This document shows, piece by piece, positions 52,634-63,880 of a stretch of DNA of 64,000 nt. The DNA is from Acidobacteriota bacterium. Lineage in GTDB: Bacteria; Acidobacteriota; UBA4820; DSQY01. Made by a program: the position numbers and the translations under genes. Where the stretch lies: contig JBMFSH010000011.1 of NCBI GenBank assembly GCA_049967655.1, positions 1-64,000 of the forward strand. The letters are read 5' to 3'. The notes below the pieces were generated by a model that was given only the letters and a program-made list of their open reading frames with translations, made no database searches and was not told the DNA's origin. The number at the start of each line of letters is the position of its first letter. Position 1 is the first letter of the stretch.

Positions 52634-52665
52634 GTTTTCACAGCCTTATGCACAGATGTGGAAAA
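52634..52665. promoter_or_regulatory. DnaA box cluster immediately upstream of dnaA
   Basis: GTTTTCACA (52634), TTATGCACA (52646), TGTGGAAAA (52657). Confidence 0.78.
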
Positions 52666-52915
52666 CTCCGCCGTGCTCTCTCCCGGGTCCCGAAGCGGGC
52701 GCGAAATCAGAACTCCCGTCCCGGGCCTGGTGCAAACCGGCCGTGAAGAGAGAGTTTTGCCCCTGGGATCGCGGCTGCGTTCGGAGCACTCCCTTCCCTG
52801 GACCCGGACGACCAGTACCATTTCTAGTATGCCCCCGGACCTCCCTCGAAGGGAAGTCCCCCTCCACCGTCGGGGGCGCCCCCTAAGCTTGGCTCTTTCG
52901 ACAAGAAGACTTACG

Positions 52916-54583
52916 ATGAAAGCAGGGGCAGGGGAGAAGGCGGGGCCGTTCGCGGAAAGGCGGTGGTTCGTGGGGACGAAGCAGCAGGTGGGGAACAGCA
53001 AGGCCAGCAAGAGCGCAGCCGGAGGGAAGGCCCGGCCGGCTCCCGCCTTCCCGCTCCGCTGCGCGGCCGTGGATGTGGGCACCAACGCCCTGCGGTACCT
53101 GGCCGTCGAATTCAGCGCCCCGGGTCAGTTTCGCGTCTTGGAGAATCTCCGTAACGCGGTGAGGCTGGGCCACGGAGTTTTCCTGAGCGGACGACTCGCG
53201 GAGGAGCAGGCGGCCGAGGCCTTGGAGGTCCTCAAAAGCTATCGAGAGCGCATGGATGCCCTATCCATCTCGCGCTACAGGGCCGTGGCCACCAGCGCCG
53301 TGAGAGAGAGCGCAAACGGAGCAGCCTTCCTAGCTCAGGTGAGGCAGGTCGCCAAGATCGACCTCGAGACCATCCACGGCTCCGAGGAGGCGAGGCTGGT
53401 TCACCGGGCCGTGAAGAGCCGAATCGACCTCGGGACCGCCTACTGGATGCTGGTGGACCTGGGCGGCGGCAGCGTGGAGGTCTCCCTCGTCGACGCCAGC
53501 GGCCTTCAGTGGAGCGAATCCCACACCATGGGCTCGGTTCGCTTGCTGGAGGAGCTCACGGGGAGCGCCCGGGACCGAGGGCGATTCCTGCGACTGCTCA
53601 CGGAGTACGCGGGAACCCTGCGGGTGCGCTCCGGGCTGGAAGAGGTGCGGCCCTCGGGCTACATCGCCACAGGGGGGAATATCGAGACGCTTGCGGAGAT
53701 GGCCACGGCGGTGCCGGACGCCGCCGGCGTCAGCCGACTCCCCGTGGAAGACCTGGCGAGGCTCATTCAGCGGCTCTCCTCCCTGAGCTACCGCGAGCGC
53801 GTGGAGAAGCTGGGCCTGCGAGAGGACCGGGCCGACGTGATCCTCCCCGCCGCCATCATCTACGAGCGCCTAGCTACCCTGGCTCAGGCCAGGGAGATCC
53901 TCGTGCCCTACGTGGGCGTCAAGGAGGGCATCGTGCTGGATCTTGCGGACGGGGCGTCGCCGCTCGGGGCGGGGCAGGTGCGGCAGGCGGAGCAGCAGGT
54001 GGCGAGGACCGCCGTGGCCCTCGGGCGCAAGTACCACTTCGACGAGCCCCACGCCCTCCACGTGGCGTCGCTCGCCCTCTCGCTCTTCGACCAGACGCTC
54101 GCGGTGCATGGCATGGGCGAGGAGGAGCGGCGGATCCTGCACGCCGCGGCGCTCCTGCACGACATCGGCTCCTTTGTCAGCTACACGCGGCACCACAAGC
54201 ACTCGCTCTACCTGATCGCCCACTCCAACCTGGCCGGCTTCACGCCGAGGGAGACGCTCATGGCGGCCAACGTGGCCCGCTACCACCGGCGGAGCTTTCC
54301 CAAGCCCCAGCACGAGCCCTTCACGGCGCTGCAGAAGGACGACCGGGACAAGGTCTCGGCTCTGGCCGCCCTGCTGCGCCTGGCGGACGCCATGGACCGG
54401 GAACACCGGCAGAGGGTGGAGCGGATCAAGGTCAGCGTGAGCCGATGGGCCCTGAAGGTGGGGCTGGAGGGCCAGGGAGACCTCCTGCTGGAGGCCTGGG
54501 CGCTGAAGAGGAAATCGGACCTGCTCCAGAAGGTCTTCGGGAGGCCCGTCGAGGTGGCGCGCCTTGAGAAGGGGGGGAAATGA
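52916..54583 (+). CDS. ppx: Ppx/GppA exopolyphosphatase with HD domain (start uncertain)
   Basis: AVDVGTNA, VRLG, AVATSAVRE..N, G.EEARL, DLGGGSVE, ATGG, DRADVI, AALLHDIG, HHKHS, ARYHR, LRLADA.D. Confidence 0.93.
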   Translation: MKAGAGEKAGPFAERRWFVGTKQQVGNSKASKSAAGGKARPAPAFPLRCAAVDVGTNALRYLAVEFSAPGQFRVLENLRNAVRLGHGVFLSGRLAEEQAAEALEVLKSYRERMDALSISRYRAVATSAVRESANGAAFLAQVRQVAKIDLETIHGSEEARLVHRAVKSRIDLGTAYWMLVDLGGGSVEVSLVDASGLQWSESHTMGSVRLLEELTGSARDRGRFLRLLTEYAGTLRVRSGLEEVRPSGYIATGGNIETLAEMATAVPDAAGVSRLPVEDLARLIQRLSSLSYRERVEKLGLREDRADVILPAAIIYERLATLAQAREILVPYVGVKEGIVLDLADGASPLGAGQVRQAEQQVARTAVALGRKYHFDEPHALHVASLALSLFDQTLAVHGMGEEERRILHAAALLHDIGSFVSYTRHHKHSLYLIAHSNLAGFTPRETLMAANVARYHRRSFPKPQHEPFTALQKDDRDKVSALAALLRLADAMDREHRQRVERIKVSVSRWALKVGLEGQGDLLLEAWALKRKSDLLQKVFGRPVEVARLEKGGK

Positions 54584-55266
54584 TGGACAGGGCGGGTGAA
54601 CACCTCCCCGGCAAGCTCGTCGCCGTGGAGGGGCTGGACGGCTCGGGGAAATCCACGCAGGTCTACCTGCTCTTCCGCTGGCTTCAGAGCCGCGGCTGCC
54701 GGGTCTTTTTCACGGAGTGGAACTCCTCGCTGCTCGTGCGGGAGGCCACCCGCAAGGGGAAGCGGCGGCAACTTTTGACCCCCACGACCTTCAGTCTGAT
54801 CCACGCCACCGATTTCGCCGACCGGTACGAGCGCCAGATCCTCCCCCTCCTGAGGGCGGGCTACATCGTGCTCTGCGACCGCTACATGTTCACCTCCTTC
54901 GCCAGGGATGCGGTGAGGGGGTGCGACCCCGCGTGGCTGCGGCGGATGTACGGCTTCGCCAGGGTTCCGGACATCACCTTCTTCTTCAGGCTCCCCCTCG
55001 AGGTGGCCCTGGGCCGCATCCTGGAGGGGCGGCCCAAGCTGAAGTACTTCGAGGCGGGCATGGACCTGGGCCTGAGCCCAGACATCACGGAGAGCTTCCG
55101 CCTCTTTCAGGGGCGGGTCCTCGAGCAGTACCTCGCCATGGCCGAGGAGTTCGGGTTCACCGTCCTGGACGCCACCCGGCCGGTCCACAGCCAGCAGCAG
55201 GTCGTGCGCCAGATCGTGAACCAGAAGCTGGACCTGGCCACCTTCCACAAGAGGTTCGTGCAATGA
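54580..55266 (+). CDS. Thymidylate-kinase-like P-loop kinase, copy A
   Basis: VEGLDGSGKSTQ P-loop, CDRY, PDITFFF; atypical TEWNSS, HATDFADR and YFEAGMDLGLS. Confidence 0.85.
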   Translation: MMDRAGEHLPGKLVAVEGLDGSGKSTQVYLLFRWLQSRGCRVFFTEWNSSLLVREATRKGKRRQLLTPTTFSLIHATDFADRYERQILPLLRAGYIVLCDRYMFTSFARDAVRGCDPAWLRRMYGFARVPDITFFFRLPLEVALGRILEGRPKLKYFEAGMDLGLSPDITESFRLFQGRVLEQYLAMAEEFGFTVLDATRPVHSQQQVVRQIVNQKLDLATFHKRFVQ

Positions 55267-55976
55267 GCGCCAAACGGTGCTTCGGCAATGCCCCGGCGGG
55301 GGTGGACGTCTCCAAGCTCTCGGGCTCCCTGATCGTCATCGAGGGGCCCGACAGCTCGGGCCGTTCCACCCAGATCGCCCTCCTGACCGAGTGGCTGGAG
55401 CAGCAGGGCTACGCCGTGGAGCAGGTGGGCCTCAAGCGCTCCACGCTCGTGGGGCCGGAGCTGGAGCAGGCCAAGCAGGGCAACGTCCTGAGCCCCCGGA
55501 CCCTCTCGCTCTTCTACGCCACCGATTTCTTCGACCAGCTCGAGAACCGCATCGTGCCCGCCCTGAGAGCCGGCTTCGTGGTGCTGGCGGACCGCTACAT
55601 CTACACCCTGATGGCGAGGGACATCGCGCGAGGGGCCGAGCCCGAATGGGTCTCCTCCATCTACTCGCTCGCCCTGGTGCCGGACGCGGTCTTCTACCTC
55701 ATGGTCTCGCTGCGCACGCTCGTGGAGCGGACCTTCCAGTCGCACGCCGACCTGGACTACTGGGAATCCGGGATGGACTGCGGCCTTTCGAGGGACTGGT
55801 TTCAGAGCTTCGTGAAGTACCAGCGCCGCATGCGCACGGAGTTCATCCGCATGCAGAAGCAGTACGGATTCGTGCCCATCAACGCCAACCGCAGCGTGAT
55901 CACCGTTCAGAAGGACCTGAAGGCCCACATCCAGGAGGTTCTGGACAAGTTCGAAAAGCCCGTGTACCATGGGTGA
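55263..55976 (+). CDS. Thymidylate-kinase-like protein, copy B (variant P-loop)
   Basis: IEGPDSSGRSTQ, YATDFFDQ, LADRYIYT, PDAVFYL, YWESGMD; ATGA overlap with copy A. Confidence 0.85.
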   Translation: MSAKRCFGNAPAGVDVSKLSGSLIVIEGPDSSGRSTQIALLTEWLEQQGYAVEQVGLKRSTLVGPELEQAKQGNVLSPRTLSLFYATDFFDQLENRIVPALRAGFVVLADRYIYTLMARDIARGAEPEWVSSIYSLALVPDAVFYLMVSLRTLVERTFQSHADLDYWESGMDCGLSRDWFQSFVKYQRRMRTEFIRMQKQYGFVPINANRSVITVQKDLKAHIQEVLDKFEKPVYHG

Positions 55977-56406
55977 CATGACTGAACCCGTCAGAGAATC
56001 CAAGCTGGGGAGCCGACCCGCTCCCGGGAAAAGCAAGGCCGCCGAGCCCGTCCCGAAGGGGAAGGCCAAGGCGGCGGGCGCGGCGCGCGTCTCGGCCGAT
56101 GGCCGGCGAAAGAAGCTGGGCCTTGCCGTGGCCGAAGAGCTCCAGGCCACGAGGGGGATCCTGCGCGAGGCGGGCGAGGCCGTGCTGGTCCGCCTGGACG
56201 CCGAGCTGGCCGCCATGGCCTCCTACCTGAGGGGCGAGGAGCTGGAGGGGGAGCACCCCCGGCTTCCCTCGCCGCGCACGCTCGCCGCCATGGTGGAGGA
56301 GTGCCGGGCGCTCAAGGTGAAGCCCAAGAAGGGGCGCGTGAAGGACCTGGCCCGCATTGAGGCCCTGCTGAAGGCCCTCTCGGCCATGATGCCGCCCGAA
56401 GCCTGA
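55969..56406 (+). CDS. Basic helical hypothetical protein
   Basis: Overlaps the upstream stop; GC3-rich; Lys/Arg-rich N-terminus and LKVKPKKGRVKDLARIE. Confidence 0.7.
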   Translation: MGDMTEPVRESKLGSRPAPGKSKAAEPVPKGKAKAAGAARVSADGRRKKLGLAVAEELQATRGILREAGEAVLVRLDAELAAMASYLRGEELEGEHPRLPSPRTLAAMVEECRALKVKPKKGRVKDLARIEALLKALSAMMPPEA

Positions 56407-56434
56407 TGAGCCCGTCCGGCGGGAGGAGTGCGCC

Positions 56435-57160
56435 GTGAGGGTCGCTTTTCTCTCCGACGTCCACGCCAACCTGCCCGCCCTCTGCCGCGCACTGGAGTCC
56501 GCCCGGCGGAACGGCGCCGAGTTCCTCTTCTGCGCCGGCGACCTCGTGGGCGGAGGGCCCCATCCCACCGAGGTGGTCCGCCTCCTCATGGAGCGCGAGA
56601 TCCCCTGCATCCTGGGCAACGTGGACCGCAAGGTGCTCTCCCTGGGGCGGGATCCCAAGCGGCTCCGCAGACGAATCCGCGAGGGCAAGGGGGCCGTGGC
56701 GGCCTGGGCGGCCCTCTCCCTCGGCGAGGCGGAGTGCGCCTGGCTTACCTCCCGGCCCGCGGAGCTGAGGCTGACCCTCGGCGGGACCGACGCGTGGATC
56801 GTCCACGGCAGCCCCCTATCGGATGAGGACTATCTCTATCCCAGCCTCACGACCAGGGCCCTGGGGCCGAGGCTCAAGGGTGAGCGGCCCGGCCTGCTCG
56901 TCTGCGGCCACACGCACATCCCCTTCGCTCGGGCCGTGGGGGCGGTACGCGTCGTCAATTGCGGATCCGTGGGGCGCCCCATCGACGGCGACCCCAGGGG
57001 CTCCTACGCCCTCTGCGATTTCGGGGGTGGAAGACGGCTGCAGAGCCGCATCGTTCGCTTCACCTATCCCGTGGAGGCGCTCGTGGCCGACCTGGAGTCC
57101 CGGGACGTGCCCAAGAGCCACCCGGCTTTCTACCGGACGGGGAGGGGCCACGCCCTCTGA
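56435..57160 (+). CDS. Metallophosphoesterase (calcineurin-like)
   Basis: SDVHAN, GDLV, GNVD, HGSP, GHTH, NCGSVGRP.DGDPR. Confidence 0.92.
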   Translation: MRVAFLSDVHANLPALCRALESARRNGAEFLFCAGDLVGGGPHPTEVVRLLMEREIPCILGNVDRKVLSLGRDPKRLRRRIREGKGAVAAWAALSLGEAECAWLTSRPAELRLTLGGTDAWIVHGSPLSDEDYLYPSLTTRALGPRLKGERPGLLVCGHTHIPFARAVGAVRVVNCGSVGRPIDGDPRGSYALCDFGGGRRLQSRIVRFTYPVEALVADLESRDVPKSHPAFYRTGRGHAL

Positions 57161-57199
57161 CGGGCCTCGGCGCCGGGAGGGCGGGAAGGGAGGCGAGAG

Positions 57200-58810
57200 G
57201 TGGAGGGATCGGGGCGCTCCATTTCATTCCGCCTACCCGCCGCGCGGAGCCTGGCGGGGCTGTTGCGCGCCCTCAAGGGCGTGGGGTACGTCGCAGGCCC
57301 GGTGGGCCGGACCGCCTACCGCACCCTCTTCTTCGAAACCCAGGACGGGCGGCTCTTCCGTGCGGGGCTTCGCCTCGGCCTCGGCCTCCGGAAGGGGCGG
57401 CCCGTCTGGCGCCAGGAGGGGACGGGCGCCCCCTTGGAGACCCCGGCGCCGACGGCCCTCACCGCCGCGCTGGAGGGACGCGCCTGGCTGGAAGCCTCGG
57501 CGGCCGGATGCCCCGAGGCCGCGGCTTCGGCGGCGGGACCGCGTAGGCTTCTTCCCCTGGTGCGCTTGGCGGGCCGGCGCTCCGAGGCGGACCTGGCCTC
57601 GCCATCGGGGGCCGGGCTGGATGTGAGCCTGGACGTCTTCTGGGCGGCCTCTCCGGGCGAAGCACCGCGTCGGGAGGGGCCTCCCCTGCGCCTCCTGACC
57701 GTGCGCCTGTCGGAGGGGGAGCCGGCGGCGCTCCAACACGCGGCGGCCTTCCTCCGGGACCTGCTCCGCCTGGAGCCTTACGAGGGGGACGCCTGCTCGG
57801 CGGGGCTTTTAGCCGTCGACCTCTCCCAGCCGGGGGCGCCGCTTCCGGCCCGGCTGGCGGTCCTTCCCACGGACCGCATGGCCGAGGCGGCGCGCAAGGT
57901 CGTGGAGCGGCAGGCGCTCTTGATGGAGAGGAATTCGGCCGGCACCCGTCTGGACCTGGATCCCGAGTACCTGCACGACCTTCGCGTGGCCACGCGGCGG
58001 CTGCGGGCGGCCCTCCGCCTCTTCGGCGCCGTGCTCGGCGTGCGCCGGGCCGAGGCCCTGCGCTGCGAGCTGCGATGGATCGGCGGTCTTCTTGGGGGAG
58101 TGCGGGATCTGGATGTGCAGCTCCGCGACCTGGAGCCCTTCGGGGAGCGGCTGGGAGAGGCCGAGCGGGTGCTGGCCGTGCTCCGGACTGAGCTCCTGGT
58201 GCGGAGAGGCCCCGCGCTGGAGGCCCTCCGGTCGGCCCTGGCGAGCCGGCGCTACGCCTCGCTCCTACGGCGCCTGCTCGCCCTGGGGAGCTCGCCTGTC
58301 CCCAAGCGCCTCCCGGCCGGGGGTGCGCTTCCCGTCCTCGCGGCCGCCCCGCCCCTGATTCAACGGGCCGCCCGGCGCGTCTTTCGGGTGGGCCGCGCCG
58401 TGACGCCCCAGAGCCCGCCTCCGGAGCTACACCGGCTGCGCATCCTCTTCAAGCGCCTGCGCTACACCTGCGAGTTCTTCCGGGAGGCCTTCCCCGAGGT
58501 CCTGCCGGAGCTCATCGAGTCCATGGTCCGGTTCCAGGACTGCCTGGGGGAGCACCAGGACGCGGTGGTGGCCATGGCCCGCATCCAGGACTTGGCCCGC
58601 CAACTGGTGGCCCGGGGCCGCATGGCGCCGGAGGAGCTTCTGGACCTGGGCGGACTCATCCAGGTGCACCGCGAGGTGGCCCGCGACCGCAGGGCTCGCC
58701 TGGCGGGGCTCTGGAAGGGTTTCGACCGGCCCTCCGTGCGCCGGGCCCTGGCCGGCCTGGGCGCGCCGGCGCCGGAGGGCCGTGAAACAACCGGCCGCCC
58801 GATGGCGTAG
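57200..58810 (+). CDS. Degenerate CYTH domain fused to a CHAD polyphosphate-binding domain
   Basis: FFETQDGRLFRAGLRL (CYTH-like); CHAD motifs E.LHDLRVATRRLRAAL, LG.VRDLDV, LHRLRI.FKRLRY..EFF, QD.LG.HQD. Confidence 0.88.
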   Translation: MEGSGRSISFRLPAARSLAGLLRALKGVGYVAGPVGRTAYRTLFFETQDGRLFRAGLRLGLGLRKGRPVWRQEGTGAPLETPAPTALTAALEGRAWLEASAAGCPEAAASAAGPRRLLPLVRLAGRRSEADLASPSGAGLDVSLDVFWAASPGEAPRREGPPLRLLTVRLSEGEPAALQHAAAFLRDLLRLEPYEGDACSAGLLAVDLSQPGAPLPARLAVLPTDRMAEAARKVVERQALLMERNSAGTRLDLDPEYLHDLRVATRRLRAALRLFGAVLGVRRAEALRCELRWIGGLLGGVRDLDVQLRDLEPFGERLGEAERVLAVLRTELLVRRGPALEALRSALASRRYASLLRRLLALGSSPVPKRLPAGGALPVLAAAPPLIQRAARRVFRVGRAVTPQSPPPELHRLRILFKRLRYTCEFFREAFPEVLPELIESMVRFQDCLGEHQDAVVAMARIQDLARQLVARGRMAPEELLDLGGLIQVHREVARDRRARLAGLWKGFDRPSVRRALAGLGAPAPEGRETTGRPMA

Positions 58811-58819
58811 AATGGGCTC

Positions 58820-59755
58820 ATGAGCGTGGTCCTCTCGGTCCGGGACATCCGCGTCAGCTACGGCCCCACCCAGGCCCTGAGGGGCGTCACCTTCGAAGTC
58901 CCCGGAGGCGCCGTGGGGCTTCTGGGCCCCAACGGCGCGGGCAAGTCCACCCTCATCAAGGCCATCCTCAACCTCGTCCCCCTCTCGGGGGGGCGCATCA
59001 CGCTCATGGGCCAGGACAGCGGCGCCCTGGGGCCCGCTCTCCGCGACCGCGTGGGCTACGTGCCGGAGCGCGAGGGCCTGCGGCCGGGCATGAGCGGGGT
59101 GGGCTGGGTGGCCCTCCTGGGCGAGCTCTCGGGGCTGCCGCGCCGCTCCGCCGTGGAGCGCGCCCACGAGGTGCTCCAGTACGTGGGCCTCGAGGAGAGC
59201 CGCTACCGCAACGTGGAGACCTTCTCCACGGGCATGCGCCAGCGCCTTAAGCTCGCGGCATCCCTGGTGCACGATCCGGCGCTGGTGCTCCTGGACGAGC
59301 CCACCTCGGGCATGGATCCCGTGGGCCGGGAGGAGATGCTGGAGCTCTGCCGGGACCTCGTGAAGCAGGGCAAGACGCTCCTTCTCTCCACGCACATCCT
59401 GAAGGACGTGGAGGCCCTCTGCAGTCAGGTGGTGATCCTGCACGAGGGGCAGGTGCTCGCCGGCGTGACGGTGGAGGACTGGACCCGGAGCGAGGCGCAG
59501 CACTTCCTGGTGCAGTGGGAGGGTCAGGGCCGGGCCTTCGAGAAGGCTTGTAGGGGCAGGGGCTGGACGGTGGAACCGAGGCGGGACGGCCTCATCAAGC
59601 TGGTCCTGCCCGTCGGCGAAGGCCCCCGCTCGGTCTTCCAGGCGGCCCGCGAGGCGGGCGGCGGGCTCAACCGGTTCGTGCGGGAGGAGACCTCCCTGGA
59701 GGAGCTCTTCCTCTCGGCGCTCAATCGCAACGGAGCCGACCATGCCGGTCTATGA
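58820..59755 (+). CDS. ABC transporter ATP-binding protein
   Basis: GPNGAGKST, FSTGMRQR, LLDEPT, STH. Confidence 0.93.
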   Translation: MSVVLSVRDIRVSYGPTQALRGVTFEVPGGAVGLLGPNGAGKSTLIKAILNLVPLSGGRITLMGQDSGALGPALRDRVGYVPEREGLRPGMSGVGWVALLGELSGLPRRSAVERAHEVLQYVGLEESRYRNVETFSTGMRQRLKLAASLVHDPALVLLDEPTSGMDPVGREEMLELCRDLVKQGKTLLLSTHILKDVEALCSQVVILHEGQVLAGVTVEDWTRSEAQHFLVQWEGQGRAFEKACRGRGWTVEPRRDGLIKLVLPVGEGPRSVFQAAREAGGGLNRFVREETSLEELFLSALNRNGADHAGL

Positions 59756-60617
59756 ACAGGGCTACGAGGCCTACGCGGGGGCGAGAAGGCCCCTCGGGCG
59801 CCGCTGGCTTCCCCTCTTCCGGGATGAGCTGCTGCCCTACTTCAGGAAGCGCCGTTTCGTCTTCCTGCTCCTGCTGGCCATGATTCCCTGGCTCTACGGC
59901 ATCGCCCTCACCTTTCTGCACACCCAGCTCGGCGACGCGCAGTGGGCGAAGGAGCTGGTGGGCCAGCTGCCGAAGGTGGACGAGGCCCTGGTGGCCAAGC
60001 TCATGGCCAACGGATTCGACCTCTTCCTCCTGCTCGTGGTCTGCATCTGGGTGGGCTCGGGGCTCGTGGCCAGGGACCGCAGGGACAGGACCCTCGAGGT
60101 CTTTCTGGGCCGCGGCCTCGGGGCGGGCCAGTACCTCTGGGCCAAGGGGGCGGCGCTGGGACTCTTCCTCCTGCTCTTCTCGCTGCTGCCCACCCTGGTG
60201 CTCGTGGTCTTCCAGGTGGGGCTGACGGGCGATGCGGGCTGGATCTTCGTCCATTCCCGGGTGCTGTGGGGCAGCCTGCTCTACACCGTCCTCGGGCTGG
60301 GCTCGCTGACCGCGTTCGTCCTCGCCCTCTCTTCGCTGGGGCGCTCGCCCAGGGTGGTGGGGCTCGTGCTCGTCGGGATCGTCTTTTTCGGCGACGTGGC
60401 CTGCGGCATCCTCTACGGGATCACCCGGAATCCGGCCATTTGGTTCTTCTCCGTGGCCAAGGAGCTGGAGGTCCTGGCCTGCCGCTGCCTCGGCGCCCCT
60501 CCCCCGCACTTCATCTCCCTTCCGCTCTGGCTGAGCGTGCTCTTCTTCGCCGGCCTGGCGGCCCTCAGCGCGGGAGTGCTCTTCCTGCGCTTCGCGCGCA
60601 GGGGGGTGCTGCAATGA
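59742..60617 (+). CDS. ABC-2-type transporter permease
   Basis: About 6 TM helices; GSGLVARDRRDRTLEVFLGR.L....Y...K. Confidence 0.85.
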   Translation: MPVYEQGYEAYAGARRPLGRRWLPLFRDELLPYFRKRRFVFLLLLAMIPWLYGIALTFLHTQLGDAQWAKELVGQLPKVDEALVAKLMANGFDLFLLLVVCIWVGSGLVARDRRDRTLEVFLGRGLGAGQYLWAKGAALGLFLLLFSLLPTLVLVVFQVGLTGDAGWIFVHSRVLWGSLLYTVLGLGSLTAFVLALSSLGRSPRVVGLVLVGIVFFGDVACGILYGITRNPAIWFFSVAKELEVLACRCLGAPPPHFISLPLWLSVLFFAGLAALSAGVLFLRFARRGVLQ

Positions 60618-61528
60618 TCCGGGTCGAGAACGTCTCCAAGTGGTACGGCATGGTGGTGGGAGTGAACCGCATCTCCCTGGAGCTGGAGCCCGGCGTCACG
60701 GGCCTCCTGGGCGTGAACGGCGCGGGCAAGAGCACGCTCCTCAACCTCATGGCGGGCCTTCTGCGCCCCTCTTCGGGCACGGTGGCCCTGGACGGCCAGC
60801 CCACCTTCGCCAACCCGGCCGCCCTACGGCACATCGGCACCTGTCCCAGCCCGGACCACCTCTACGAGGAGCTGACCGGACTCCAGTTCGTGGAGCTCAT
60901 GGGGCGGCTCTCGGGCCTCCCGGCGGCCGAGGCCAGGGCCCGCGCCCGGGCCTCCTGCGACGCCGTGGCCATGGGCGAGGAGGCGGGCAAGCGCATCCGC
61001 TCCATGAGCAAGGGGATGCGGCAGAAGGTGAAGATGGCCCAGGCCCTGGTCCACGAGCCCAAGGTCCTGCTGCTGGACGAGCCGCTCAACGGCATGGACC
61101 CGCCCAGCCGGGCCCAGACCATCGAGGCCATCCGCCGCTGGGGCGAGGAGGGGCGCTACGTCCTGGTCTCCTCCCACATGCTGCACGAGGTGGAGGCCAT
61201 GACCTCGCGCATCCTGCTCCTGCACCACGGCAAGCTCCTGGCCTCCGGGGAGGTGCCCCAGGTGCGCCAGGCCATCGCCTCGCGGCCCATGCGCGTCTTC
61301 GTGCGGTGCGCCCAGGCCCGCCTCCTCGCCTCCGAGATGATCGGGTGGGACTGCCTGGCCTCGCTCTCCTTCGGCTCCGACGGCCGGTCGCTCACGGCCG
61401 AGGTGAGCGACACGGGGGCCTTCCGGACCCGCCTGTCGGAGCTGATGGCCGAGCGGGACCTGGGCCTCGAGATCCTGAACCCCCTGGACGACAATCTGGC
61501 GGCTGTCTTCTCCTACCTGGTGGCCTGA
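60614..61528 (+). CDS. ABC transporter ATP-binding protein
   Basis: GVNGAGKST, MSKGMRQK, LLDEPLNGMDP, SSH. Confidence 0.93.
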   Translation: MIRVENVSKWYGMVVGVNRISLELEPGVTGLLGVNGAGKSTLLNLMAGLLRPSSGTVALDGQPTFANPAALRHIGTCPSPDHLYEELTGLQFVELMGRLSGLPAAEARARARASCDAVAMGEEAGKRIRSMSKGMRQKVKMAQALVHEPKVLLLDEPLNGMDPPSRAQTIEAIRRWGEEGRYVLVSSHMLHEVEAMTSRILLLHHGKLLASGEVPQVRQAIASRPMRVFVRCAQARLLASEMIGWDCLASLSFGSDGRSLTAEVSDTGAFRTRLSELMAERDLGLEILNPLDDNLAAVFSYLVA

Positions 61529-61529
61529 G

Positions 61530-62318
61530 ATGGATTCGGCGACGCTCACCCTCTTCTCCTTCACGGCCCGGCAGATGACGCGCTCGGTCAAGGCCTGGCT
61601 CTTCGGCCTCATGGTGGCCGTGCCCTGGGGCGTGGTCCTGCTACTGAGGCTTCTCATCGCCCAGGGGGTGCCCGTGCCGATGGGTGGAGTCACGCTCTAC
61701 GGCATGCTCGTGCTCGGGTACGTGCTCGGCTTTTTCGTGCCGCTCTCGACGCTCTTTTTCGGGACGGCCCTCATCGCCGACGAGGTGGAGGGCGGAACCC
61801 TGCCCTACCTCTTCGGCCGGCCCATCCGGCGCGAGAAGCTTTTCCTCGTCCGGTACGCGGCCATGACGGCCATCCTGCTGGCGGGAACGTGGGCCAGCGT
61901 CCTGGGCACCTACGTCCTGGCCATGACGAGCGGATCGCCCGCGGGAGAGCTGGGGACCTTGGGCGGCGACCTCTTCACCGTAGGCCTCGCCGTGGCGGTC
62001 TACGGGGCCCTCTTCTCCTTCCTCGGCATGGCCCTAAAGAAGCCCCTCTTCTGGGGGCTCCTCATCGGCTTCGGCTGGGAGAACCTGGTGGCGTGGCTGC
62101 CGGGCTTCCTCAAGCGCCTCACCCTGCTCTTCCACCTCCACACCCTGCTCCCCCACGCCTCGGGGCCCCAGGGCCTCCTCCAGCAGCTCCTGGCCTCCAG
62201 CGAGAGCCGCCTGGCGGCCCTGCTCTTCCTGCTCGTCTACGAGGCCCTCTTCCTGGCCCTAGGCTGCCTCCTCATCCGCCGCATGGAGGCCTCCGTTGGC
62301 GAGAGGGAAGAAGGGTAG
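61530..62318 (+). CDS. ABC-2-type transporter permease
   Basis: About 6 TM helices; LIADEVEGGTLPYLFGRPIRR. Confidence 0.87.
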   Translation: MDSATLTLFSFTARQMTRSVKAWLFGLMVAVPWGVVLLLRLLIAQGVPVPMGGVTLYGMLVLGYVLGFFVPLSTLFFGTALIADEVEGGTLPYLFGRPIRREKLFLVRYAAMTAILLAGTWASVLGTYVLAMTSGSPAGELGTLGGDLFTVGLAVAVYGALFSFLGMALKKPLFWGLLIGFGWENLVAWLPGFLKRLTLLFHLHTLLPHASGPQGLLQQLLASSESRLAALLFLLVYEALFLALGCLLIRRMEASVGEREEG

Positions 62319-62469
62319 GGCCGGAGGAGGAAAAGAGCCGTCCGGCCCCGGGGCCCCGTCCGCCAGCTGGCTTCGGAAGATACAATAGACATGGCTGGAC
62401 ATGCCTTTTCGGGAAAAGCCAAGAAAGACGGCCTCCCTTCCTTGCGGTTGTGGGTTTGCGGGCTGCCCC

Positions 62470-62500
62470 TTGAAAAAAAAAGGGGGGGGGGGCATATATT
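62470..62500 (+). promoter_or_regulatory. Putative promoter with homopolymer tracts (A9, G11) in the spacer
   Basis: TTGAAA (62470-62475), 19 bp that are almost all A and G runs, TATATT (62495-62500). Confidence 0.55.
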
Positions 62501-62546
62501 TGCGCTAACCCCAGCGGGAAGGGCAGGAAAGAAAGGAGGGTGCTTC

Positions 62547-62753
62547 ATGAAAAAGCTGTTCACGGTTAGTGCTATTTTGGGAGCGTTGCTGTTGGTGACA
62601 GTTTTGGTCTTCGGTAGCCAGGCTCCCCCGCCCCCTATTATCTTGCCCCCGGGAGGCAATTGCGGGCCGGTTTATGGCTGCACTTTCAGTCGTGTGACCG
62701 GCTACTGCGAGGGTACCTCGGGGGCCTGCCAATGCATGGACTGTTACCCTTGA
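62547..62753 (+). CDS. Small secreted Cys-rich peptide (68 aa, six Cys)
   Basis: AAGGAGG RBS; signal-like MKKLFTVSAILGALLLVTVLVFG, Pro-rich linker, NCGPVYGCTFSRVTGYCEGTSGACQCMDCYP. Confidence 0.72.
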   Translation: MKKLFTVSAILGALLLVTVLVFGSQAPPPPIILPPGGNCGPVYGCTFSRVTGYCEGTSGACQCMDCYP

Positions 62754-62806: not shown

Positions 62807-63880
62807 ATGAGAGGAAGGGGGCGGCACGGCGGTTTGGTGCTGCTTCGCTCGGTGACAATTCTCTGTTTAGGGCTCTTTGGTGGATCGCTGCCCATCGCGT
62901 CTGCTGCACCAAGGCTCCTTTCGGTTGAACCCCTTGTCCTACCCGGCCTGCCGAAGGCCGTGGAGGGGCTCTGCGCGGGCCCTCAAGGGCGCCTCTTCGT
63001 GCTGGACAGGGTGAACGGAGAGGTGCTCGTTTTCGATAAAGAGGGCCGAAAGATAGGCTCCTTCGGCAAGGGAAGGATAGTAGGCCCACGCTCCATCACG
63101 GCTGCCGGCTCAGAAGTCGCGGTTGTGGAGGGGAGAGGGTCCCTCCTTTTTTTCAATGGGCGAACCCTCTCTTACGAGAAGACGACAACCGGCCTCACCC
63201 GTTACTGCCCTGGCTTGGGGGCCGCGCTCACACCCAAAAGGATCGTCTATGGCGGCATGGGCTACGAAGGGGAGCGGCCCGAACGGGGGGAGACCTTCGA
63301 CGCCCTGGTGCTCTTTTCGACCGACTGGGAGGGCCGGGATCTTCGCGTGTGCGCGCGCAGGAAGGTTTTGTGGGAGGAGGAGAAGGGCTTTCAAATCCTT
63401 GCAGGAAGTCATTTCTTTCCTTTACAGGGAGGGGGGATTGCGGTGGCTCGGGTCTTTCCACCCAAGATCTGGTTGCTCGATTCGGAGGGCCGGGTGGTGA
63501 GGCAATCGCAGGGGGGAAACGAACCTCTGCCACGCGCTCCCTCGGAAGGGCGCCTTCCTCCCGATCAGGAGTGGGATGCCATCTATTTCGGAACACCGCA
63601 CGTGGAGGGTCTTTTCGCCGCCGGAGACCGCTTCGCTCTCATCGTCCGGGAACACACCCAAATGGGGCACGTGCTCTACCTTTCTTGGTATGACAAGGAT
63701 CTTCGGCCTTACCAAAGAGAACCCCTCCGGCTCCCGGTCGTCCTGGGGAGTGACGATTTTGTACGCGGGACGGTTTCCTGGGGGAGCAACGAGATTCTTC
63801 TTCTCCTCGTTCGCCGGCAAGAAAGGCCCTGGGGCATCGGGATCTCACGGGTGTTTCGGCTCAAGTTCTCGCACGGATAG
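62807..63880 (+). CDS. Secreted NHL / 6-bladed beta-propeller-like protein
   Basis: GAGGAGG RBS, signal peptide, GPQGRLFVLDRVNGEVLVFDKEGRKIGSFGKG NHL-type blade. Confidence 0.75.
   Translation: MRGRGRHGGLVLLRSVTILCLGLFGGSLPIASAAPRLLSVEPLVLPGLPKAVEGLCAGPQGRLFVLDRVNGEVLVFDKEGRKIGSFGKGRIVGPRSITAAGSEVAVVEGRGSLLFFNGRTLSYEKTTTGLTRYCPGLGAALTPKRIVYGGMGYEGERPERGETFDALVLFSTDWEGRDLRVCARRKVLWEEEKGFQILAGSHFFPLQGGGIAVARVFPPKIWLLDSEGRVVRQSQGGNEPLPRAPSEGRLPPDQEWDAIYFGTPHVEGLFAAGDRFALIVREHTQMGHVLYLSWYDKDLRPYQREPLRLPVVLGSDDFVRGTVSWGSNEILLLLVRRQERPWGIGISRVFRLKFSHG

Follow-up and report, generated by a model that had tools for sequence, protein, structure and literature searches.

Which enzyme makes or uses polyphosphate (polyP) in a bacterium whose ppx gene is followed by two genes that read as thymidylate kinases? 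The question is raised by a six-gene run in the first 64,000 nucleotides of contig JBMFSH010000011.1 of an Acidobacteriota bacterium (assembly GCA_049967655.1), a stretch called the window here. The first-pass annotation had proposed that the two kinases, A and B, form a heteromer of an active and a variant subunit, an unrecognised polyP kinase misannotated as dTMP kinase. Our analysis supports the heteromer by analogy with the archaeal pair Saci_2019/Saci_2020 (PMC12995831, by Hofmann et al., J Biol Chem 2026; preprint 10.1101/2024.08.28.610084), and the operon very probably encodes a functional bacterial PPK3, its chemistry and heteromeric make-up being carried over from Sulfolobus acidocaldarius. 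The word 'unrecognised' had to be given up, as the family already bears the name PPK3 and bacterial members, Acidobacteriota included, are in print; the system itself is not new. The genes of the run are as follows.

52916..54583, + strand: Ppx/GppA exopolyphosphatase with C-terminal domain III/HD; 555 amino acids counted from this ATG, true start uncertain; Pfam PF02541 E 2.6e-43, PF21447 E 1.1e-33
54580..55266, + strand: kinase A, putative cPPK3 counterpart; 228 amino acids; best PDB match 2PLR/5H70; GxxGxGKS, WNSS, DR and ExGxD conserved
55263..55976, + strand: kinase B, putative partner subunit; 237 amino acids; best PDB match 2PLR, E 5.6e-37; own clade; Arg for the P-loop Lys, DRY kept
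55969..56406, + strand: basic protein without a family name; 145 amino acids; no Pfam or NCBIfam family; three-helix model, pLDDT (predicted local distance difference test) 93
56435..57160, + strand: YfcE/MJ0936-type metallophosphoesterase; 241 amino acids; PF12850 (Metallophos_2) E 1.6e-23
57200..58810, + strand: CYTH-CHAD protein of YgiF-like layout; 536 amino acids; CHAD PF05235 E 1.8e-54; N-terminal model matches tunnel enzymes

The run (52916-58810) lies wholly on the + strand, divergent from dnaA, and is as tightly packed as had been described. ATGA overlaps were found at both the ppx/A and A/B junctions, the basic gene overlaps the end of B by 8 nt (or lies 1 nt behind it if it starts at its second ATG, at 55978), and the gaps before the metallophosphoesterase and CYTH-CHAD genes are 28 and 39 nt. 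Pfam returned Ppx-GppA with domain III/HD, Thymidylate_kin twice, Metallophos_2 and CHAD for the proteins of the window.

The published PPK3 is a heteromer encoded by two dTMP-kinase-like genes beside ppx (PMC12995831). SaPPK3 consists of cPPK3, Saci_2019, and rPPK3, Saci_2020, encoded in an operon of the order sixA-ppx-pair-CHAD. Saci_2019 made polyP from ATP and ATP from ADP and polyP, and formed no dTDP in nuclear magnetic resonance and coupled assays; Saci_2020 was inactive alone and at 1:1 raised the activity about 6-fold, in a 2:2 complex. Operons with both subunits were predicted in bacteria, with Acidobacteriota among the carriers, and in Data S1 ten genomes of Chloracidobacterium are given the scores PPK3 1, PPK1 0 and PPK2 0 (PMC12995831).

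The operon of the window resembles SaPPK3 in that a tandem pair of the thymidylate kinase (TMK) fold directly follows ppx, a CHAD gene is included, a separate canonical tmk exists and PPK1 was not found in the genome; moreover, the EP motif is lacking, the first gene has an intact P-loop and DRX motif, and the second lacks several conserved basic residues. It differs in having no sixA-like open reading frame (ORF) among its six genes, in the additional basic three-helix protein, metallophosphoesterase and CYTH fused to CHAD, in the PPK2 that the genome also encodes, and in the B subunit, which keeps the DRX arginine and has an arginine P-loop.

Kinases A and B among the thymidylate-kinase-like proteins

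When A and B were compared with PDB sequences, the best solved match of both was STK_15430 of Sulfurisphaera tokodaii (PDB 2PLR, 4NZY, 4RZX, 5H70). A matched 2PLR/5H70 at E 2.5e-58 and 200.6 bits, with the next match at 67.9 bits and true TMKs at 9e-18 or weaker, and B matched 2PLR at E 5.6e-37 and 130.8 bits, with the next at 45.7. Profiles built from 57 relatives ranked the PDB matches alike (258 against 67 bits for the A profile). The archaeal protein shares TEWNSS, LLTP.TFSLIHATDF.DRYER and DRY...ARD.VRG with A, and the two have in common K59, K61, H75, R82 and R85 or an equivalent basic residue, which are conserved in the A clade. Its PDB title is 'Probable thymidylate kinase', and STK_15430 (5H70) has been reassigned as a homolog of the cPPK3 Saci_2019 (PMC12995831).

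The P-loops read GLDGSGKST in A and GPDSSGRST in B; ATDF.D, DRY and Y.E.GMD.GLS are common to both and TREPGG is in neither, all as first reported. The two are also closer to each other (39% identity over 210 amino acids) than to the housekeeping Tmk of the genome (31% over 198 for A, 28% over 145 for B). GSGKST and DR were each present in 81 of 81 aligned A rows. At the two EP columns, which give the only motif checked by name among the dTMP-binding residues of the paper, 93% and 100% of 16 TMKs have EP, the A clade has WN (95% and 93% of 63) and B has residues other than either. A and B thus share fold, P-loop and DRX with canonical TMKs (TIGR00041) and differ from them in lacking EP and in forming a separate branch. 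On the TIGR00041 model both fail the cut-off of 83.25 bits, A with 83.2 and B with 80.5.

The B alignment comprised 78 true B rows, L059, L072 and L076 having been left out beforehand as A genes. The P-loop Lys was replaced by Arg in all 78 and in 51 of 54 domains of the wider B clade, and the DRX arginine was kept, as DRY in 78/78 rows and as Arg in 54/54 of the wider clade. Where A has H75, R82, R85, R151 and K155, B has Y85, Q92, N95, H161 and D165, while the basic K71, R119, R123 and R156 are retained. Residues G33, R34, D110, R111, Y112, R119, R123, R156 and W167-E168-x-G170-x-D172 were invariant in 57/57 rows.

We then considered the kinship to PPK2 that had been suggested. PPK2 enzymes (PF03976) are likewise P-loop kinases and shuttle phosphate between polyP and nucleotides, and their two-domain forms pair an active with an inactive half. 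The shared P-loop core holds, but neither A nor B matched PF03976, and A gave E 0.18 or weaker against the PPK2 of its own genome, which is encoded separately on contig C29.

A tree was built from 205 kinase domains, 80 partial ones having been dropped, and ultrafast bootstrap (UFBoot) values were obtained on 59 chosen domains; supports were taken from unrooted splits. The 188 PPK3-like domains were separated from 16 canonical TMKs (FastTree 0.979; UFBoot 100 in the 59-domain set), A and B falling outside the TMKs; a placement within bona fide Tmk had been named beforehand as refuting. B domains formed their own clade on a long branch (UFBoot 100), and the branching among A, B and P0249, a protein that matches 2PLR at E 2.1e-87 and served as archaeal anchor, was weakly supported (UFBoot 67-69). 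Saci_2019 and Saci_2020 were absent from the tree, and a primer-derived pattern for the S. acidocaldarius locus had no match in the metagenomes. A complex prediction for A, B and the basic protein scored 0.00, which bears neither for nor against a complex. Judged by sequence, A and B belong to a clade of the TMK superfamily that includes the archaeal cPPK3 anchor and lies apart from canonical TMKs. A carries the sequence marks of cPPK3, an intact P-loop and the DRX arginine, and appears to be the counterpart of the catalytic PPK3 subunit. B looks partner-like by its position and its loss of basic residues, but it was not filed as a strict rPPK3 because the DRX arginine is retained.

Companion genes and other polyphosphate kinases

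We wanted to know which other kinases accompany the pair. In the genome of the window (99.3% complete) a canonical tmk with the TREPGG motif lies at C28:6203-6784 (154.8 bits against a cut-off of 83.25); this is the separate tmk for which a search had been advised. The reported absence of ppk genes stood for the 64-kb window, and PPK1 was not found in the genome either; it failed for PPK2, since contig C29 encodes one (405 bits on TIGR03709, cut-off 247), the sole PF03976 match of the genome.

We examined the neighbourhood in 80 A-picked loci, many of them cut by contig ends; they come from Acidobacteriota, Methylomirabilota, Spirochaetota, Gemmatimonadota, Verrucomicrobiota and other groups. 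B was found in 78, the basic gene in 57, ppx in 54, CHAD in 39, the phosphoesterase in 29 and PPK2 in 8, so that ppx, CHAD or PPK2 lies near the pair in most A-loci. The operon arrangement is not due to chance. Fifty of the 79 distinct genomes behind these loci were searched, and PPK1 was found in 8 and PPK2 in 46.

Of 251 genomes sampled evenly across the phylum, 38 carried the pair and 210 had no match. PPK1 was present in 6 of the 38 and in 134 of the 210 (the 134 include the unpublished G073), a contrast that is overstated because the sampled genomes are related and not independent. In families f48 and f50, a carrier of the pair lacks PPK1 and its listed kin have it. A separate tmk-type match was found in 33 of the 37 other pair-carrying genomes. 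The replacement of PPK1 by the pair is not strict.

Three genomes of the sample gave a single match. They were not kept as cases of a lone PPK3 gene, since a very diverged second TMK-like ORF lies beside each match. In these loci (L096, L097:4883-6248 and L098) a divergent PPK3-like gene, about 40% identical to A, precedes a strongly degenerate TMK-like ORF; PPK1 is kept, and tblastn detected no polyP gene nearby. In Verrucomicrobiota loci (L083:8449-10406, L069:8461-9444) a further gene comes after the pair, and several loci of this kind have a short Ppx as well; the gene presumably encodes a ROK-family kinase, and a polyP-linked sugar kinase is possible there.

The basic gene after B was analysed separately. 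Its product has a variable Lys/Ala/Pro-rich N-terminus and a three-helix core of 100 amino acids, modelled with pLDDT 93, with a nearly invariant KPxKGRxKD loop. Pfam and NCBIfam gave no family (on 47 members Pfam returned scattered weak hits only), fold searches found nothing closer than helical bundles of a generic kind (best Foldseek E 2.1, best VIA Z 6.5), and the two unnamed clusters that Atlas offered at 0.76 are no more than a lead. When presence was tested in 60 genomes, the gene directly followed B in 25 of 37 pair-carriers; it was found in 0 of 3 genomes with a diverged pair and, as a weak partial match, in 1 of 20 others. Among 80 metagenomic loci picked on the basic gene, 38 had B and 31 had no polyP gene, and 30 of these 31 formed one weakly supported group of the basic family, flanked in the loci inspected by genes that read as mnmG-like and pyruvate dehydrogenase genes. 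L151, L164, L167, L170, L175, L176 and L190 show this setting, in which a second group of the family stands alone and retains the KPxKGRxKD motif. The idea of an obligatory third subunit was dropped, the gene being missing from 12/37 pair-carriers and 31/80 homologs having no PPK3 gene nearby. It is an optional companion of the pair, and its product plausibly binds polyP or phosphate.

Proposed action of the pair and its alternatives

If the operon works as a PPK3, A would hold ADP or ATP at its P-loop and polyP in a basic cleft at the dTMP site of TMKs, and would move the terminal phosphate reversibly (polyP + ADP = ATP). B, a paralog with little or no catalysis of its own, would assemble with A into an oligomer and make it more active. 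The Ppx of the same operon would take phosphate off the ends of the chains, and granules and short phosphates may be handled by the CHAD, CYTH and phosphoesterase proteins. PPK3 would stand mostly in place of PPK1, beside a separate PPK2, and would probably also be the main polyP maker at high ATP/ADP. What the sequences themselves show is gene order, family placement, motifs and co-occurrence; that A and B share the archaeal chemistry, that B is the inactive partner and what the remaining four genes do is inferred.

Several observations weigh against this reading. Neither the pair nor PPK1 was found in 7 of 19 genomes of the family to which the window belongs, and PPK1 was kept in the 6 pair-carriers given above. 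Of the 38 pair-carriers, 32 have PPK2 and just 3 have neither PPK1 nor PPK2, unlike the majority trend (not a rule) by which most PPK3 carriers are said to have neither (PMC12995831). No separate tmk was found in 4 of 37 pair-carriers, all drafts, one of them rated 100% complete, and the score of A lies only just below the dTMP kinase cut-off. In the available parts of the paper no bacterial PPK3 is assayed, and the inactivity of rPPK3, which also lacks the basic cleft, is ascribed to loss of the DRX arginine (PMC12995831), the very residue that B retains. The link of B to rPPK3 was drawn from position and basic-residue loss, Saci_2020 having entered none of the comparisons.

The alternative that survives best, one that we regard as possible but do not favour, is that A and B form an almost purely polyP-consuming ATP regenerator and that the separate PPK2 supplies the polyP. 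A preference of about 50-fold for ATP formation is given for SaPPK3 (PMC12995831), and the PPK2 score in this genome and its frequency behind the A-loci point the same way; against this, the pair is depleted for PPK1 and not for PPK2, which suggests overlap with a synthetic enzyme, and the three pair-carriers just mentioned have neither other kinase.

A little less probable, and put forward tentatively, is that B is no inert scaffold and that its arginine P-loop and DRY hold a ligand, either a nucleotide or phosphate, by which it would sense energy or phosphate status or catalyse a second transfer, to another NDP or NMP acceptor; it might also have an origin separate from archaeal rPPK3. The strong conservation of B, including R34, D110-R111-Y112 and the W167-E168-x-G170-x-D172 motif, is consistent with this, as are the replacement of the P-loop Lys by Arg, no random residue, and the long, fully supported branch. 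A Lys-to-Arg change in Walker A, however, usually keeps binding and blocks transfer, and the grouping of B with A or with archaeal sequences is weakly supported. The loss of the conserved H75, R82, R85, R151 and K155 of A also fits an rPPK3 without basic cleft (PMC12995831). Both the ATP-regenerator and the ligand-binding proposals are compatible with PPK3 membership.

It is very improbable that A, alone or together with B, serves as a second ATP-using kinase for dTMP or another nucleoside monophosphate with an incidental link to polyP genes: Pfam and NCBIfam return thymidylate kinase only, the closest PDB relative bears that title and a few pair-carriers have no separate tmk, but Saci_2019 formed no dTDP (PMC12995831), EP is absent, the genome has a canonical tmk elsewhere, the pair lies among polyP genes in several phyla, and a cPPK3-like domain is fused to Ppx in P0361.

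Remaining genes, surroundings and fused relatives

The Ppx, the sole ppx of the genome by tblastn, scored below every NCBIfam equivalog cut-off, and the metallophosphoesterase scored under that of TIGR00040. Pfam did not find CYTH in the CYTH-CHAD protein and matched it in 5 of 31 aligned relatives; a profile of the region had no match among PDB sequences. The model of residues 1-220 matched the fold of triphosphate-tunnel enzymes, best E. coli YgiF (E 4.3e-7), and on this model the N-terminal part has the triphosphate-tunnel (CYTH) fold. The 297 bases upstream of ppx contained no Pho-box half-site, and a promoter and terminator scan of the operon gave no usable signal above chance.

Between dnaA and ppx (52634-52915) lie TTATGCACA, which resembles a DnaA box, and, on the opposite strand, another box-like nonamer. 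dnaA adjoins the operon in 10 of 80 related loci and is listed among PPK1-associated genes (PMC12995831). Four ABC-2-type transporter genes (58820-62318, same strand) start 9 bases after the CHAD gene; they are probably not part of the system, because the permease adjoins the operon in just 9 of 80 loci, all close relatives. Farther on, an ORF at 62391-62753, without a Pfam family, is signal-peptide-like in its later part and then encodes a small Pro/Cys-rich peptide, upstream of a beta-propeller-like gene (62807-63880).

A cluster-representative search for relatives of the cPPK3-like kinase gave 370 proteins at E 1e-30 or better. Among them are fusions to Ppx, Ppx domain III, NUDIX or an inorganic pyrophosphatase domain, and single chains with two kinases (P0122, P0357, P0133, P0153, P0154, P0361, P0256, P0257 and P0254). 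The layouts include A-B single chains in Alicyclobacillus, full Ppx with cPPK3 in Phycisphaerales, two kinases with Ppx domain III, NUDIX with kinase, and kinase with the pyrophosphatase domain. Because of the fusions to Ppx, NUDIX and pyrophosphatase domains, the family is tied to phosphate metabolism independently of the operon.

In a clade of its own (UFBoot 98) the kinase is fused to a DUF2252/APH-like domain and, in most members, also to an MFS transporter; the named members are Elusimicrobiota. About 50 proteins of about 1200 amino acids have the MFS, cPPK3-like kinase and DUF2252/APH-like parts (P0175, P0221, P0264, P0304-P0353); the named ones are annotated as dTMP kinase or MFS transporter, and a related MFS-form protein of 1350 amino acids, P0360, is recorded from the rotifer Rotaria sordida. 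Two members that group together (UFBoot 99), P0186 and P0303, have an N-terminal SPX domain above the Pfam cut-off, followed by the cPPK3-like kinase and DUF2252, P0303 having an MFS transporter in addition. Both SPX domains carry Y.DY..LKK and N.TGF.KILKK, which we take to be SPX inositol-phosphate-binding motifs. The source of P0186 is a transcriptome of Ancoracysta twista, a protist, and this species label could reflect prey or contamination; the P0186 kinase matched 2PLR at E 2.9e-35 and TMKs at 1e-16. The kinases of the SPX and MFS fusions keep the P-loop, WNS and DRX; their polyP activity is less certain because not all basic residues of A are kept. From their sequences, P0186 and P0303 are candidate eukaryotic polyP kinases.

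A literature search found no publication on SPX or MFS fusions of a cPPK3-like kinase. Data S1 scores one Elusimicrobiota genome as PPK3-positive, the tree of Fig S19 is rooted on an unnamed eukaryotic sister clade (PMC12995831), and its authors may have met these eukaryotic and Elusimicrobiota proteins already. We propose, as a conjecture that is rather doubtful at present, that the PPK3 family reaches to single-chain MFS-kinase-DUF2252 and eukaryote-type SPX forms that make or use polyP, and that in the window the subunit with the arginine P-loop senses nucleotides and the basic helper binds polyP.

That PPK3 explains how bacteria without PPK1 make or use polyP, with thousands of its genes labelled dTMP kinase, is a published point. 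Still undescribed are the second (B) subunit, the small helper gene and some distant fusion proteins. New here are that the bacterial partner differs from the archaeal one at the residue said to explain inactivity, that PPK3 mostly replaces PPK1 while coexisting with PPK2, and that an unnamed basic protein accompanies the pair in one branch. More important than the operon are the fusion proteins, since SPX would tie the kinase to phosphate signalling. The enzyme that makes polyP in many eukaryotes is described as unknown in the preprint (10.1101/2024.08.28.610084); if the fusions make or use polyP, some eukaryotes would have a polyphosphate kinase under SPX control that is related neither to VTC4 nor to PPK1.

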